From Octopus sinensis (lineage: Eukaryota): a stretch of DNA of 64,000 nt. The position numbers and the translations under genes are program-made. The stretch is from positions 558,001-622,000 of the forward strand of contig NC_043008.1 in NCBI RefSeq assembly GCF_006345805.1. The letters run 5' to 3'. A model generated the notes under the pieces. It was not told where the DNA came from, ran no database searches, and worked only from the letters and a program-made list of their open reading frames with translations. Within the stretch, counting starts at the first letter, position 1. Each line of letters starts with the position of its first letter. This document shows positions 5,382-56,898 of this stretch, in pieces.

Positions 5382-6185
5382 TATACTAAAATTACATTAA
5401 AATATCTTGAAATACTAAATAGTGAATTTATTCAATGAAATCGCCATTGGCTACAACCACGGCATCCAGACGACTTCGGAATCTCCTGCAACTCTTCTCG
5501 ATGGTCTCATTCTTTAAGTTGGTTAATGCTGCCATAATTCTTGCGTTCAGTTCGTTTTTGGTGTAACAAGGAATTTTGTTAGTCTCTCGTTCATCTGCGC
5601 CCCACACATAATAATTAGAGGGTTGCAGTTTGGGGGGTTAGGTGCCAGATGTTAGGGGTGATGTGATCGCAGAAATTGTCTGACAGCCATGACTGGGTTC
5701 TTTGCTTTTGTGGCATGGTGCAGAGTCCTTTTGCCAGACATAAGGTCTTCCAGCAGCCACCCTCTTGAACCAATGCAGCACTACCTCCTCCAAGCACTTG
5801 ATGAAGGCCTCCGTGTTGAGTCTGAGGCTGTGTGGGTAGAGGAATGGAGGCATGACGTAGCTATCACTGGTGATCACTCCAAACACCATGATGTTCACTG
5901 GATGTTTGATTTTGATCACTCTCGCAACATGTCCTCAGACTGCTCTCTCTTGAGATTGACACCCAAATACTCTGAAATGTTTGTATTGGAGCTTCCAGCT
6001 CTAATTCCAAGCAGTACAGTATGTCGTTTCTAAATTTCTTGCAGAGTGAATTGCGTCATAGTGCTGTTTCTCTCACAGACGGTGCCCAACTGACCTTTCA
6101 ATACTATATAGTCAACAAAATGAAAAGCAAGCAATGCGCATGCGCGAAATTAAAAAAATGGCGACGATTTACCCCTCGCTCCCTG
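5382..6185 (-). mobile_element. Tc1/mariner DD37D (maT) transposon relic, internally deleted
   Basis: Frameshifted KHPVNIMVFGVITSD...YVWQKDSAPCH..RTQSWLSDNFCDHITPNIW...CNPL.YYVWGA. One TIR ends CCCTG followed by TA at 6186-6187. Homologous to 31592-32826. Confidence 0.88.
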
Positions 6186-6314
6186 TACATATATATATTC
6201 TTATTTCGCTTAGGTGTAGTGATACAAATAACCTAGTTTTAGAGCTCAGCAAAGTGTCATGTAAATAGAGGAATTTATCTATAAATATATAATGTGACAG
6301 TTAGTTCATTGTCA

Positions 6315-6377
6315 TAATAAAACTCATAGTTTCAGATGCCGGGGCAAAAGTTTGCTCCGGTACCTCATCAGTTATTA
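6315..6377 (-). ncRNA. Type I hammerhead ribozyme-like motif (left member of inverted pair)
   Basis: Minus strand reads TAATAA CTGATGA GGTACCGGAGC..GCCCCGGCATCT GAAA CTATGAG TT TTATTA; stem I is TAATAA/TTATTA. Confidence 0.55.
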
Positions 6378-6390
6378 ATACAAAAACGCT

Positions 6391-6453
6391 TAATAACTGA
6401 TGAGATGCCAGAGCAGGCTTCAGCCCCGACATCCGAAACTCTGAGTTTTATTA
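6391..6453 (+). ncRNA. Type I hammerhead ribozyme-like motif (right member of inverted pair)
   Basis: TAATAA CTGATGA GATG..CATC C GAAA CTCTGAG TT TTATTA: 6-bp stem I, near-palindromic stem III, GUU triplet, one extra base before G12. Confidence 0.6.
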
Positions 6454-6529
6454 TATCAATTAAGTGATTGTCCTATATTATATATATATATATACATACA
6501 CACACACAATGCAATGTGATATAATAATA

Positions 6530-18036: not shown

Positions 18037-18373
18037 TATACATATATATACATATATATAATAATAGTTATCGCCATACTAATATGGCATTCTTATAAAA
18101 ATAAGAATAAAGCTGTCCGCTTATTAGCTCCATGAGGCCATCGCCTTAAGTTAGCTAATAAGCGGACAGCTTTATTCTTATTTTTATAAGAATGCCATAT
18201 TAGTATGGCGATAACTATTATTTTCCGAAAACGCTGCCGTTGTTCTCTTTTAGAGAGACTTAGTAATTTTAATATTTCTATTATTGAAAACAAGTGGATG
18301 TATTCCACCGAAGCTAGGTAAATAAAACCTTCGAACAGAGATTGTCAGAAGCGACACCTACTGGTCTGGCTAC

Positions 18374-18416
18374 GCTGCATTGAAAAGGGGCAATACCCCG
18401 AAAACGCGTCTGTAGC
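18374..18416 (+). ncRNA. Type I hammerhead ribozyme, U3-A8 core variant (copy 1)
   Basis: GCTGCA TTGAAAA GGGG CAATA CCCC GAAAA CGCG TC TGTAGC. Has one extra A versus copy 2, possibly a homopolymer error. Predicted cleavage after 18410. Confidence 0.75.
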
Positions 18417-18737
18417 TGCCGGTCAAGTAGTGTGGAGCGACTGACCTCCCTTGTTCGAAGGTTATATGGATACAGTTTGTGTATCAAATAGCTAACTTAG
18501 GCGATGGCCTCATGGAGCTAATAAGCGGACAGCTTTATTCTTATTTTTATAAGAATGCCATATTAATATGCGATAACTATTATTTTCCGGAAAAACGCTG
18601 CCGTTGTTCTCTTTTAGAGAGACTTAGTAATTTTAATATTTCTATTATTGAAAACAAGTGGATGTATTCCACCGAAGCTAGGTAAATAAAACCTTCGAAC
18701 AGAGATTGTCAGAAGCGACACCTACTGGTCTGGCTAC

Positions 18738-18779
18738 GCTGCATTGAAAAGGGGCAATACCCCGAAACGCGTCTGTAGC
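18738..18779 (+). ncRNA. Type I hammerhead ribozyme, U3-A8 core variant (copy 2)
   Basis: GCTGCA TTGAAAA GGGG CAATA CCCC GAAA CGCG TC TGTAGC: 6-bp stem I, 4-bp stem II, palindromic stem III ACGCGT, GUC site. Predicted cleavage after 18773. Confidence 0.82.
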
Positions 18780-19044
18780 TGCCGGTCAAGTAGTGTGGAG
18801 CGACTGACCTCCCTTGTTCGAAGGTTATATGGATACAGTTTGTGTATCAAATAGCTAACTTAAGGCGATGGCCTCATGGAGCTAATAAGCGGACAGCTTT
18901 ATTCTTATTTTTATAAGAATGCCATATTAATATGGCGATAACTATTATTTTCCGGAAACGCTGCCGTTGTTCTCTTTTAGAGAGACTAAGTAATTTTAAT
19001 ATTTCTATTACATATATATACATATGATATATATATACATATAC

Positions 19045-31591: not shown

Positions 31592-32820
31592 CAGGGTGCG
31601 ATGGGTAAATTGTTGCCATTTTATAACTTTAATTTCGTGCATGCGCATTCTTTATTTTTCATTTTGTCGACTACACTGTCTAGTAGAGTCAGTTGGGCAC
31701 CGTCTGTGAGAAAAACACCACCATGACGCAATTCACTCTGTCGGAAATTTGGAAACGACATACTGTATTGCTTGGCATTCACGCCGGAAGTTCCAATACG
31801 CACATTTCAGAGTGTTTGGTTGTCAATCTGAGGACAATGCAGAGGATTTGGAAAAAGTCTAATGGTGATTAAGAGGGTACGGCAGCTCGGAAAACCGACT
31901 CTGATCGTTCTGATAAGAAAAGAACTCCTGAATTTGTTCGTGAGATCCAGGCCATGATTGACAACGATCCCTTCACAAGTCAATCAGGTCCATCACCAGG
32001 GACATGGGACTGTCTGGGTTACTTATCAGGCAGGTAGAGCATGAAGACATTCTGTATTCTTCATACAAGATGAGAAAGGGCCAATTTTTATCCCAAGCCA
32101 TCAAGGACAAGAGGAAAGACTGCGTTACAAAATGTTTGAACAAACTCCAGCATCCCCTCCAACACAAAGGACGACCATTAGCTTGCAGTGTCCCCAAAAC
32201 ATGTACCGAGAGTGATAAAAATCAAGCATCCAGTCAACATCATGGTGTTTGGAGTGATCACCATTGATGGTGAGGTTATGCCTCTATTTATCTTCCCACA
32301 CGACCTCAGACTCAACATGGAGTTCTTCATCCAGTGCCTGGAGGAGGGAGAGCTTCCCTGGGTCAAGAGGTGGCTGCTGGAAGACCCTATGTTTGGCAAT
32401 AGAACTCTGCACCATGTCACACAAGCAAGAGAAACCACTCATGGCTGTCAGACAATGTCTGCGACCACATCATCCCTAAAATCTGGCCACCTAACCACAT
32501 CATCCCTAAAATCTGGCCACCTAACTGCAACCCCCTTGACTATTATGTGTGGGGCGCAGTTGAGCAAGAGGCCAAAAAAACGCCTTATAACACCAACGAT
32601 GAACTAAATTCATCTTAAACAAAGTGACTGTTCAGAAGAGCTGCAAGAGATTTCGAAGCCGTCTGGAGGTCGTGGTTGAAGCCAATGGCGATTTTATTGA
32701 ATAGATTTACTCTTTAGCATTTCAAGATATTTTTATGTAATTTTAGTGAATATATGTGTTAAAATGAAATGTCAGTATTATTTCATTTTTGCGTAATTTA
32801 GACGACAATATATTCATCGC

Positions 32821-41067: not shown

Positions 41068-41339
41068 TGCACGCACATGCGCAAACACAATATATATCTT
41101 TTCTTGGGTCCTCAACTTTTGCTGACGTCGTAATGATATACATGTCTTCAAACCAGGCGGAGTCCAGAAATGTCTAATTCTGAAAACTGCACGTCTTTTC
41201 TAAAAAGGGTGAGAAGAAGTACTTAGTAGTAGTAGTAGTAGTAGTATCATGGGAGTTACTAAGAGGATGGGAGGTAATGTACTCTATCATCTCTCTCTAT
41301 AGCTTCTTACTCCACACCGTTTGTAGGTGTTACAATATA

Positions 41340-42470
41340 TTTTCGAATATAAAGTAAATTTTCTTTTGTATTGAAGAACTTGTAAAATCACGGAAACAGT
41401 CTGGCAATATACATTAATTCCAAACATTATTCAGAGTCGAAAATGTTACTTCATCCGTGACTCAGCTATGTTATCCGCGGCCTCCGTTATGTTGAAGTTC
41501 TTCCAAAAGTTTCAAAGCGTAGGTTAATCATCCTCGCCAACTGCGTGGTTAACATTTTTTGAAAGTTCTACTTCCAAGTTTTGCATAACTTGATCCATTG
41601 CCTTAAGCAGAGAAATTGTATTTTGTTGGATATGTCTTACTCGCATTGTTAGAAATCTCTTCAAGTGGCAGAGTGCATTGTCTAAAAAGAGCACAGCCTT
41701 GTTGGAATTATGTTTGGCGCGGTGCCTTCCTGTAGTAGGACACACAATGTTTGTAAGCCCTCTTTGAACGTCCAATCAGAGATAAATTATACAGTGCATG
41801 AATCTCTCAAATGCTCTGGGATTTTCAGTGAACTGCACGAGAAGGGGCTTTAATTTCATTTCGCCAGCGGTATTTCTTCATAGAAGAATCGTCAGAGGAA
41901 TTTTGAATATTTCATTTGATGGTGTTGATTTTTCTTCTCGACAAATAAAAGTTCTTGTTTCCAGAAAAGCGCAGTTTCACGTTATGTTCTTGCTCTAATA
42001 TGCAGCCCCGACTCTTTAACCCCTTTCTGTTTCATTCCCTTGGGATAATTAGTAATAGCCTCTGTATCAGCGCTAGTAGCATCACCAGTCATTTTCAGGC
42101 TGAGAAAATACAAGCGTTCCTTACATCTTTCAAACTAGGCTTACCGGCCATATCACTTTGAAAACACCGGCTCTCGTCCGATCACCGAAGTTAAACAAAG
42201 TCGAGCCTAGTTAGTACTTAGATGGCTGACCGCTTGGGAAACCTAGGTGCTATAAACGTCTTTCTCAAGGCGGTGCCCCAGCATGGCTACACTCTAATGA
42301 CTGAAACAAGTAAAAAAGAAACAAAAAGAAAGTCAAGAAGGTGTCTTCATTAGAAGTTTAATTTTTCTTTGAGTGCAAATCGTCATGCAAACTTTTGATT
42401 GTTATTTTAATTACCATCGTGCTTAACAACACATTACGTCACATCTGACATAAATCTCTGTAATGACGAA
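41340..42470 (-). mobile_element. pogo/Tigger transposase relic, split by a 5S SINE
   Basis: Motifs KAVLFLDNALCH, NTISLLKAMDQ, NTAGEMKLKPLLV..ENPRA, ASADTEA, FERCK and LSTMVIK..KSLHDDL, with stops and frameshifts. Confidence 0.8.
42139..42330 (+). mobile_element. 5S rRNA-derived SINE (SINE3-type) or 5S-SINE chimera
   Basis: Full-length 5S-like sequence 42139-42258 (GGCCATATCACTTTGAAAACACCGG..CGATCACCGAAGTTAA..TTAGTACTTAGATGGCTGACCGCTTGGGAA) fused to the family B tail. Confidence 0.85.
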
Positions 42471-42619
42471 GTTACGGATCGCATCCTGAAATTAGCGACC
42501 ATACTTTTACAATTTCTGTAAGTGCTTGATCGCATAATCGGAGGTGGTGGTAACGCAGTTATTGCTTGTACTTAGAAAATATTTTTTTCCTTAGAAAATT
42601 ACTATTTGTAAATCTAACA

Positions 42620-42940
42620 ACGAGATTTTAGCAGGAACAGGAATTTGGCAGCGCCACCTCTAGCCGAACAATTATTCTGTGCTGATGAAGGGAAATAACC
42701 CGGGAATCACGATATACAGATATTGTTTTGAGATGAGATGAGGTGCTAGATTCCCTTGTTCGAAAATATAAGGACACAGATCGTGTCGCATAGCCAGCTG
42801 GAGACGATGTCTCCTGGGGCTAAATTACAGCAACATTCGTCCTAAACCAGGACTGCCATGTTATGTTGGTAAACAATCTTTACTCCGAATTTTTTTGTTG
42901 AATACTTGCTAACGCTCCAAGGGACGCACATTAGTTTTAA
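42620..42940 (+). mobile_element. Diverged single-unit relative of the 18-kb retrozyme, with decayed canonical HHR
   Basis: Shares GAACAG..AGCG.CACCT, CCCTTGTTCGAA..TATA.GGA.ACAG and CGATG..CTC.TGG.GCTAA. HHR: TCTGTG CTGATGA A GGG AAATAA CCC GGGAA TCACGA TA TACAGA (42676-42720). Confidence 0.7.
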
Positions 42941-43211
42941 ATAGTGCTCTGTTTCTTTCGTTCTAACCAAAAGCAATCATTTACCCTCAAGTAATGTTTT
43001 TCCCCCCTTTCAAAATCTCGTACGTCCGGTTGCTATATTTGAGGGCAGACTTTAGGAATGCTGGATGATAAGTGGCATCAGCACACACATTCTCTGCAGG
43101 ACCATGCTAAGAAAAACGCAAACACTTTATCTGGGTACGCCCAGCACCTTTGGGTCATGAACATCCACTATGTTTTGTAAAGGAACATATTAGTTAAATC
43201 AAAATCTTATA

Positions 43212-43282: not shown

Positions 43283-44403
43283 CTGTCTGTCTGTCTGTGT
43301 GCTTCCCTAAAACTTGAGAACTACACAACCAATTTCCTTCAAATTTTACACAAGCCTTACTTAGGGTCCGGGGAGTGTCATCGGCAAAATTTTTTTAATT
43401 TTTTGCCTAGGGCGAGCCCACAGCAATATCATATCTTCTCCACTACGATTCCCTAAAACTTGAGAACTACACAACCAATTCCATTCAAATTTTACACATG
43501 CCTTACTTAGGGTCCATGTAGTTTCATGGGCAAAAAAAAATGTTCAACTTCTTGCCTAGAGCGAGCCCATAGCAATATCATATCTTCTCCACTATTTCAC
43601 GTGTTAAAAGTGAAACAAAAACGTTTCTCTATTTTATGTCAGATACTTTCACTTTAACATTAAAAATAACAATTGAATTATATGTAGTAAGTAATAATTA
43701 AAATCAAACTAAAGTAACATGACAAAAGTAAAAATAGCAATTGGTATAAAATTGCATCAATGATTTGAACTTGAATAAGTGGTTTCACATGAATGGGAAT
43801 GAATTAAAAATAAAATTAGCGTACAGAAATGGAATAGTCCAGATGGATAATAAAAATTAAATTAAAGAAAAGACTATTGTCTATAAAGTATACACTGTAG
43901 AGAAAAAAGATTTGAACACCTGGAGGAAAGCACCACCGAAAAGTATCTTAGTGCGACTATGAAAGATATCTAAACAGAGGCGGTAAATTCGCCACAATAG
44001 AAGCAAGGTTCGAGTCAACGGAGCGTGCAAGGGAGTACTCGACTCGAACTTGCAAAGTGGAAATATTTTATTTTTACCTTTATATATGGGACGTAGGGCG
44101 TCCTGGATAAAAATTAAAAATGTCCCCCTCAAAAGTAGAGGTAGGCTGGATTGTAGCCACACTTCTATACAAGAGGGAGGACAAGATACAATTGATCGAA
44201 ATTACAAGAGACAGGCTAACAATTCCAGTCTGTTATATATTTTGAGTATTGTTATCACTAGCGATATCAAGATATAACTTTGTATTTTGTATTTTATGTG
44301 TAGATGTATATATATAGATGTACATATAATATGTACACATATATATACACATATATACATGCACTAGCACTATGACCCGGCAACGACTGGTCTTTAATGC
44401 TAG
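43212..44403 (+). mobile_element. Non-autonomous Helitron with (CTGT)n and internal duplication
   Basis: A|TC start, GACC..GGTC hairpin and CTAG|T end; CCCTAAAACTTGAGAACTACACAACCAATT occurs twice. Confidence 0.78.
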
Positions 44404-55844: not shown

Positions 55845-56528
55845 ATTAATAATAATAAACATTGTGTACAGTGCTCAGGTGCACTACAACTCATCTAAAG
55901 TGCATATATAATCAGGTGTAGTTTCGACGGATTTCGGAAAGCATGAGGGCCTTAAAGGGGCAGTGTCATGGCAGTCAACAACTGACGCAGGCAGTTTATT
56001 CCATGCTTCAGCAACTCTGAGCGTGAAGAAATGTTTCCGAAAGTCATGGGAGCTGTGTTGTTTTCTGACTTTGTAGGCATGTCCACGTGTGTTAGACACA
56101 TGGAGATCAAAAAGGTGTTCAGTGTTGTTATTGGTGAGGTGGTTGACAACTTTGTGGGCGTTTACCAAGTCCGTCGCCAGACGCCGGAGCTTCAGTGAAT
56201 CCATGCCCAGGGAAACAAGGCGCTCAGAATATGGTAGGTGTCTGATGGAGGGTATGCGTTTGGTTGCACGTCTCTGAACAGATTCCAGGAGGTCAGTGTT
56301 CTCAGCAAGATAGGGGTTCCAAACTGATGATGCGAATTCCAAGTGTGGTCGTACCATAGCTGTATACAGTTTTAAATAGATGGCTGGAGAGCGGCTAACA
56401 AAAGTCTTGCTGAGTGATGCCAAGACACCCTCGGCCTTCTTGACAATTTTAGAGATATGCTTTGTCCAACGCAAATCACTGCTGACAGTGATGCCTAGGT
56501 CACGCTCGCAAAAGGATTTCTTGATATG
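55845..56528 (-). mobile_element. CR1-clade LINE 3' fragment (RT C-terminal region)
   Basis: ORF 55884..56561: ERDLGI..HISKIVKKA..LYTAMVRPHLEFASSVWNPY..LESVQRRATK..YSERL..TRGH..FFTLRV..WNKLP; short (ATT)n tail; 5' truncated. Confidence 0.92.
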
Positions 56529-56898
56529 AGGCAGTAAAAGAGAATGACTCTCCCCAGACACAATAAAATGAACTGTATAGTTATTTGATCAATCGTACTG
56601 GTTTTGTAAGGAATATGGTGGAAGTGATAGTCATCCTATTGGTCAGTTGGCGTTCAGCTCTTAAGTCTTACACCAATTGAGCAGATCTCTGAGGGAAGGC
56701 AATGCAAGCATGATCTGCCCTCAATGTTGTATTTCATTAGCTGTTGCAGTTTCCTCCTGTTTTTAGGTTTGGTTGGATAGGGCAGTATCACAATGACGAC
56801 GACGATCTTATTTTCGACATGTTTCGAAGTCTGCAAAATCTCTATGGCTCCTAGTGAGCAGTCATCGAAAAACTTGTTGTGCATTTTGTTGGAGAATT

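Follow-up and report, generated by a model that had tools for sequence, protein, structure and literature searches.

A decayed hammerhead element of Octopus sinensis and its tandem sister, probable members of a retrozyme-like family pair spread by Penelope-type machinery

Within the window, that is, the whole 64,000-nucleotide stretch of Octopus sinensis DNA that was analysed (NC_043008.1, positions 558,001 to 622,000), we find two homologous hammerhead elements that fold alike, a tandem array at 18 kb (A) and an element at 42.6 kb (B). B has no open reading frame, it begins with an inverted piece of tail, and its family is numerous, shows a gradient of 5'-truncation and for the most part has an intact ribozyme core. 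We consider it probable that B, a sister of A, is a dead monomer, truncated at the 5' side, of a numerous and non-autonomous element of the non-LTR retrozyme kind, and that it was spread by the machinery of a Penelope-like element (PLE).

Anatomy and homology of the two elements

Element B extends from 42590 to about 42907. The original prediction had placed it at 42620-42940, and an element is indeed present there, but the true extent differs and positions 42590-42634 are inverted. This left arm (42590..42634, minus strand) represents a piece of the family's own 3' tail, as expected for a Penelope-type insertion and as evidenced by joints, depth and loose ends of contigs from sequencing runs. 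The forward body starts at 42635, and all its features lie on the plus strand. According to minimum free energy (MFE) folds of B and A, it opens with a long rod (42635..42761), which is closed by GAACA/TGTTC, with 5 of 5 pairs identical in A, and has at its tip a type I hammerhead (42676..42720) that was identified by sequence, descriptor scan and family contigs. The rod is followed by hairpin P1 (42773..42787; GACAC 42773-77 / GTGTC 42783-87), whose position is common to A and which contains one two-sided change, C-G in B versus T-A in A. The two-tier hairpin P2 (42791..42822) has an outer tier TAGCC/GGCTA in B and TAGCT/AGCTA in A, and an inner tier GGAGAC (42800-05) / GTCTCC (42809-14) in B and AGGC/GCCT in A, with one two-sided change per tier. 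In the MFE folds, the 3' domain (42828 to approximately 42907) consists of P3 (42839-53) and P4 (42855-70) within a long-range stem P5 that begins at 42828 and whose 3' strand is decayed in copy B. The longest ATG frame of B encodes 39 aa, and a protein-coding frame is thus absent.

B is a solo copy rather than a tandem. The upstream flank (42400-42590) is unrelated to the element, with scores of 60 and 113 compared to shuffle means of 83 and 102, and a second tandem unit at 42450-42590 was dropped as a candidate on grounds of shuffle-level scores (60 versus 83±14) and single-copy depth. A candidate tail remnant at 42930-42956 (score 58) was also dropped, as nhmmer did not recover it. A third copy of the A/B element was absent from the 64-kb window in nhmmer searches and tile comparison.

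In element A (18060..19010, plus strand), a non-coding unit of 364 bp is repeated 2.4 times in tandem; the hammerhead, at 18744, is of the U3-A8 type, and the longest ATG frame encodes 57 aa. Element A sits in (TA)n on both sides, and its left end is an inverted arm that starts at 18060 and lacks the last 61 nt or so before the right end (19010). The first complete unit (~18380) differs from the second by one extra A in the GAAA core (18400-18405), which is either a real change or a homopolymer error. The colinear similarity of B to this unit that had been noted from the sequence is far beyond chance: B 42635-42886 aligns to A with 156 identities in 242 aligned pairs and a local score of 284, compared to 90±16 and a maximum of 163 in 1000 dinucleotide shuffles; the nhmmer E values for the two complete A units are 7.6e-10 and 1.7e-8, and the A region was the best of 352 window tiles compared with B. 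The two families are about 64% alike, and B is thus a diverged sibling of A, as had been supposed. Furthermore, TAGTAATTTT is common to the inverted left piece of B and the 3' end of A, and both tails stop shortly after it. Loose ends of contigs upstream of 42635 resemble, by eye, the region of A upstream of its rod, and they would lengthen the closing stem of B with other letters than those of A.

The window as a whole is AT-rich and dense in microsatellites and short repeats, and several other features lie in it. A 234-aa frame on the minus strand (55884-56588) is similar to the C-terminal region of LINE proteins of the CR1/L2 type, and two related broken frames (5638-5934 and 31962-32607) resemble Tc1/mariner transposases; neither the former nor the two latter frames gave a Pfam hit. 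A non-repetitive stretch of about 1 kb (41100-42120), whose minus-strand frames are broken, may be a decayed coding element, with no Pfam hit in 5 frames. Immediately behind a (TGTC)n tract, a unit of 146-149 bp occurs twice in tandem, with 87% likeness between the copies (43303-43594). At 42139-42330, a full-length 5S rRNA match (90 bits) is fused to a tail of about 58 nt that is common to 8 other SINE-like copies in the window, and this may be a 5S-headed SINE or a chimera; one recently active 5S SINE family is described for Octopus vulgaris (PMC13282606).

Common fold and covariation

When folded separately, A and B adopt the same architecture, namely the rod with the hammerhead tip followed by P1, P2, and P5 around P3 and P4. 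If the 80 MFE pairs of B are mapped on the 79 of A, 27 coincide exactly, 49 within ±1 and 68 within ±3, compared to 1.9, 3.5 and 6.4 common pairs in simulations in which A was mutated randomly to the same divergence, transition share and indels, and none of 300 simulations reached the observed values. This null spreads changes evenly, and therefore conserved blocks of whatever cause raise the observed value in what is a single sequence pair. The claim that the family is conserved at the structural level is borne out by this comparison. The folding z scores are -3.5 for the plus strand of B, -1.65 for its minus strand and -5.2 for A, so that the ribozyme-strand RNA is predicted to be strongly self-paired.

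The claimed covariation between A and B did not reach statistical significance. Among 44 hand-set pairs, 37 form in both elements and 7 are broken in B, and the 37 comprise 27 that are unchanged, 4 changed on one side and 6 changed on both. Pairing was kept in 10 of the 17 changed pair columns, as compared to 6.9 in a uniform null (p=0.09) and 9.9 in a transition-biased null (p=0.58). RNAalifold found two-sided changes in 10 of 80 pairs; its covariation term, at +5.22, was unfavourable. The sequence material as a whole comprised three units from two loci. In addition, CpG decay on both hairpin arms could mimic covariation. As to the individual hairpins quoted as conserved through different sequence, two of the hairpin pairs each contain a two-sided change, but the third, GTCCT/AGGAC versus TTCTT/AAGAA, does not hold: in the ungapped homologous block, GTCCT (42839-43) faces TTATT and not TTCTT, with AGGAC at 42849-53. 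It is the same hairpin position in another register, and therefore no covariation.

The ribozyme and its copy family

The hammerhead of B has a helix I of 6 bp (TCTGTG 42676-81 / TACAGA 42715-20), a core CTGATGA (42682-88) of the C3-G8 type, and a short helix III with a predicted cut after 42714 at an AUA triplet. The motifs of core, stem I and hairpins on which the original prediction relied are all present where it had put them, and the decay of GAAA in B is also real, as G12-A15.1 (42703-06) reads GGAA, which corresponds to an A13 to G change in copy B. It overlooked, however, that A42689 faces G42702 unpaired at the base of helix II, which has three standard pairs (42690-92/42699-701). A42689 is an extra nucleotide after A9 and G42702 a further extra one before G12, a place at which a PLE-type hammerhead would have G10.1-C11.1 directly adjoining; element A has neither of the two extra nucleotides. 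The proposed split into C3-G8 and U3-A8 subfamilies agrees with a C3-G8 family B and a U3-A8 element A, but the U3-A8 type is seen only in two units of one locus. A change of A13 is expected to abolish hammerhead cleavage, and copy B therefore probably cuts no longer; our literature search returned nothing relevant on an experimentally tested A13G hammerhead.

A relaxed type I hammerhead descriptor, applied to both strands of the 64 kb, detected three motifs, at 6397, 18744 and 42682, of which the first is unrelated to those of A and B. Around it, at 6310-6470, two diverged minimal PLE-type hammerheads with a long helix II face apart (6397 plus, 6371 minus) between TA-rich ends, which has the appearance of one more PLE-type inverted insertion, the third in number and unrelated to A and B. 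With Rfam, no hammerhead model hit A or B up to an E of 10 (each unit gave one chance hit), and in the whole-window Rfam search, the matches listed (150 of 253) were only 5S rRNA and microsatellite noise.

The family behind copy B became visible in sequencing runs. A run search listed 24 runs, 20 of them with part of B, under five species labels and two metagenomes of small share; the insect metagenome runs X19 and X20, with shares of 0.06 and 0.04, do not count as evidence here. Contigs from 4 of the 24 runs (three species labels, with X15 regarded as RNA by guess) were aligned at 80% likeness to 42330-43210, which gave 6812, 5458, 1979 and 660 aligned contigs per run. In run X1, the depth summed over contigs rises from 32 in the flank (42450-42569) to about 77,000 across the hammerhead and to 1.3 million at 42840-69, and the ratios to the flank for the hammerhead and the 3' part are about 2,400 and 40,000 in X1 and 2,250 and 26,600 in X12. 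The depth of the family peaks at 42810-69 and no contig continues beyond 42899, whereby the zero depth at 42900-43210 in all four runs is no proof of absence, as records were dropped by the aligner. Summed contig depth does not equal copy number, but the values do show that the family is very numerous and that most copies lack part of the 5' side; the B family probably consists of thousands of mostly 5'-truncated copies. Hits in metagenomes (0 in one scan, 8 in another) and 4 hits in viral contigs were rejected as chance matches; the 12 loci score 71-166 when aligned to A or B, and a hammerhead core lies inside the match in none of the 8 metagenome loci.

Position 42704 reads A in 97.7-100% of the depth in all four runs, which restores GAAA. 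As about 98% of the family depth thus has an intact core, the broken core represents decay of copy B. The majority of the depth differs from the window at 8 or more positions in 42635-42886 (40 of 60 variant rows listed), and among the listed variants, all 7 other than 42704 give standard pairs, with partners picked by eye; they are located in helix I, at the centre of the perfectly palindromic helix III, at four rod positions (42733, 42738, 42739, 42741) and at the base of P1. The majority letters therefore repair core and pairs, which means that copy B is damaged and the family is not. In the variant rows listed, CpG sites show 7-58% decay, which indicates that the family is old. The A·G opposition at helix II is not repaired in this way: in the change-type counts of four runs, all A>C, A>T and G>T places of at least 5% are assigned elsewhere and G>C is absent, and a standard pair in place of A42689/G42702 is thus not among the common variants. 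With only three helix II pairs and the A·G, even the majority copies may cut poorly.

The flank before the element is single-copy, and an orthologue under a second species label has 22 differences in 270 letters. Run X15 has depth over the element and none on the unique flank. At 42843, T>C accounts for 23% of the depth in X15, compared to 0.05-0.12% in the three other runs, and X15 has 8 A>G and 5 T>C places compared to 3 and 2 in X1. The 42843 change may be due to editing or to an expressed subfamily whose P3 hairpin differs, a variant that is likewise seen in a loose end of X1.

Insertion mode, alternative origins and known relatives

The left arm of B can be traced in the family. In three of the four runs, contig joints connect 42622/42625 with 42883-42886 of the other strand (15 of 99 joints listed), the depth in X1 at 42600-29 is 81,624 versus 32 on the flank, and according to the loose ends, 42590-42625 repeats the 3' tail of the family in reverse-complement orientation. 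Upstream of 42591, the loose ends are AT-rich and diverge from one another (40 contigs, agreement 0.44; 24 of 809 loose-end rows listed), and the 3' ends of family B likewise run into heterogeneous AT-rich flanks. Agreement of the loose ends is 0.44-0.63 outward from 42884-86 and 0.85-0.92 inward from the tail in the same stretch, from which we infer that many copies end near 42884-86. By arithmetic, the distance from the predicted cut to the two apparent ends is about 175 and about 230 nt for B, compared to 176 and 237 nt for A. PLE insertions are described, in the accessible part of 10.1101/2021.04.23.441226, as inverted 5'-truncated copies with a 30-40 bp tail at one end and a bias towards microsatellites. 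B shows this pattern with its 5' truncation, the inverted left copy and a tail at one end only, and the target is (TA)n in the case of A and AT-rich at the 3' ends of family B. A PLE protein was not detected near B, with no Pfam hit in 10 frames, 7 of which were within 1.5 kb (of 51 nearby frames), a search that a decayed RT/GIY-YIG ORF could escape.

If B is a PLE-spread element of the retrozyme kind, tandem master copies would be transcribed, the hammerhead, whose palindromic helix III is short, would cut as a dimer, and the monomers may circularise. A PLE protein with RT and GIY-YIG domains would then bind the hairpin domain downstream of the ribozyme and nick AT-rich DNA, target-primed reverse transcription would start about 175 or 230 nt after the cut, most products would stop early, and copy B would thereafter have decayed neutrally. 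What weakens this explanation is that no family-B tandem was found: B stands alone, and a link from the tail to upstream sequence is absent from the 15 joints listed (of 99). Furthermore, helix II is weak, and 8 of 9 predicted Xenopus retrozyme dimers failed to cleave in vitro according to the accessible text of Li, Clavereau, Pollet 2026 (10.64898/2026.07.22.740005); the lack of an Rfam hammerhead match and of a PLE protein nearby, and the non-significant covariation, also count against it.

The insertion mechanism would be unchanged if the template was a coding PLE RNA, with B being a 5'-truncated terminal repeat (pLTR) of an autonomous PLE and A a non-autonomous tandem that arose from a related pLTR. 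We regard this as possible but rather unlikely. The extra nucleotide after A9 speaks in its favour, as it is the consensus of hammerheads in autonomous PLEs (PMC4209133, in the part accessible), and so do the solo state of B, the steep 5'-truncation gradient of about 17-fold over 150 nt and the 31 recently active Penelope-like families of Octopus vulgaris (PMC13282606). However, B aligns with A along its whole forward length, the tail and the upstream loose ends resemble A, and only about 35-40 nt of the 364-nt circle of A are unseen in the B family. Moreover, no ORF follows the hammerhead, whose 6-bp helix I and purine-rich loop II are like those of canonical retrozyme hammerheads.

The depth gradient could also be produced by other machinery, as 3'-biased depth is typical of LINE-driven insertion, too, and a SINE-like family moved by a LINE would retain its hammerhead as a vestige without current use. 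The hammerhead region accounts for about 6-8% of the 3' depth in the DNA runs, and a PLE could do without its hammerhead in vitro (PMC11167929, accessible part). We nevertheless judge this origin to be very improbable, since both A and B carry an inverted 3' tail at the left end, A is a tandem in a (TA)n target, the core is intact in 98% of the depth and Rfam detected no tRNA or 5S head in the unit. That copy B was domesticated as a structured host RNA is hardly credible: the orthologous flank under the second label, with a contig that runs 25 letters into the element, suggests that the insertion may be old, but all 8 majority differences among the variants listed point to damage in B, and X15, the RNA run by guess, lacks depth on the unique flank.

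The retrozyme reading with PLE spread therefore remains our preferred one, and within it a role of the non-ribozyme hairpins in RT recognition, as originally suggested, fits by position and by analogy to the stem-loop described in the accessible part of PMC11167929. We put forward only tentatively that P1-P5 form a PLE-type RT binding and initiation module that fixes starts about 175 and 230 nt after the cut, and that family B, with a working A·G hammerhead, exists in thousands of copies with one RNA-enriched subfamily. If true, this would be a compact natural RNA for asking how PLE enzymes pick up non-coding passengers. PLE recognition of such passenger RNAs is still hypothetical, and the A/B pair offers a test case, as the region of interest is indicated by two diverged high-copy families that fold alike and whose 3' ends appear to coincide. 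The copy at locus B is itself dead.

The element class, which occurs in many animals, the U3-A8 variant and the link to Penelope are already published (accessible parts of PMC7229834, PMC4209133 and 10.64898/2026.07.22.740005), and as the class is known, our finding mainly adds a family pair that is probably of cephalopods. New details are the common multi-hairpin 3' domain, the two apparently shared 3' ends and the A·G opposition that leaves helix II unpaired at its base. We found no octopus retrozyme family in the literature, whereby subscription papers and the supplements of the preprint and of PMC7229834, largely beyond the search, may hold one; the main text portions of PMC7229834 available contain no cephalopod family, and the words "ribozyme" and "hammerhead" are absent from the main text of the Octopus vulgaris repeat paper (PMC13282606). 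For the giant squid, 235 matches to hammerheads are given in the annotation (PMC6962438, in the part available).

The non-LTR retrozymes of cnidarians, mussels and axolotl, as far as the available portions of PMC7229834 describe them, resemble our elements in many respects. A has a non-coding unit of about 360 bp, similar to those of Mytilus (350-390 bp) and axolotl (330/350 bp), and further common traits are the type I hammerhead with a short palindromic helix III, the self-paired RNA, thousands of copies and two families per genome. Such retrozymes are recognised by tandem units of 150-450 bp, at least two of which have a complete hammerhead; A, with 2.4 copies of 364 bp, agrees with this, whereas B is a solo decayed monomer. 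The axolotl HHR_Amex2 has a mismatch at the base of helix II as well, U·U instead of the A·G of family B, yet cuts weakly (same portions). Li, Clavereau, Pollet 2026 argue that retrozymes derive from PLE terminal repeats and regard monomers as dispersed offspring of tandem masters, which is like our reading of B; B lacks what that preprint calls active, and its accessible text names no mollusc and contains no analysis of non-ribozyme structure (10.64898/2026.07.22.740005).

The hammerheads of PLE terminal repeats, in the accessible part of PMC4209133, share with B the palindromic helix III along with the nucleotide added after A9, and their row for Drosophila willistoni has the AUA triplet as well; in Fig. 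S3, 1 of 56 rows has an additional base in front of GAAA. The U3-A8 variant of A is that of Schistosoma mansoni with about 1300 hits, and loop II of B resembles the Schistosoma CAAAUA loop (PMC2632901, accessible part). In most PLE hammerheads, helix II is longer and helix I shorter, and the motifs lie beside an RT/GIY-YIG ORF (PMC4209133, same part); such an ORF was not found in the frames searched near B. The closest parallel for the 3' domain is the Poseidon PLE of Anolis, PAc, where, in the sections accessible, the tail stems from two internal RT starts in a stem-loop downstream of the hammerhead and targets are AT-rich (PMC11167929). That region is the start of an ORF, by arithmetic about 85-92 nt after the cut, whereas in our elements it does not code and the two apparent ends lie about 175 and 230-237 nt downstream of the cut; the likeness drawn here is one of position and layout.
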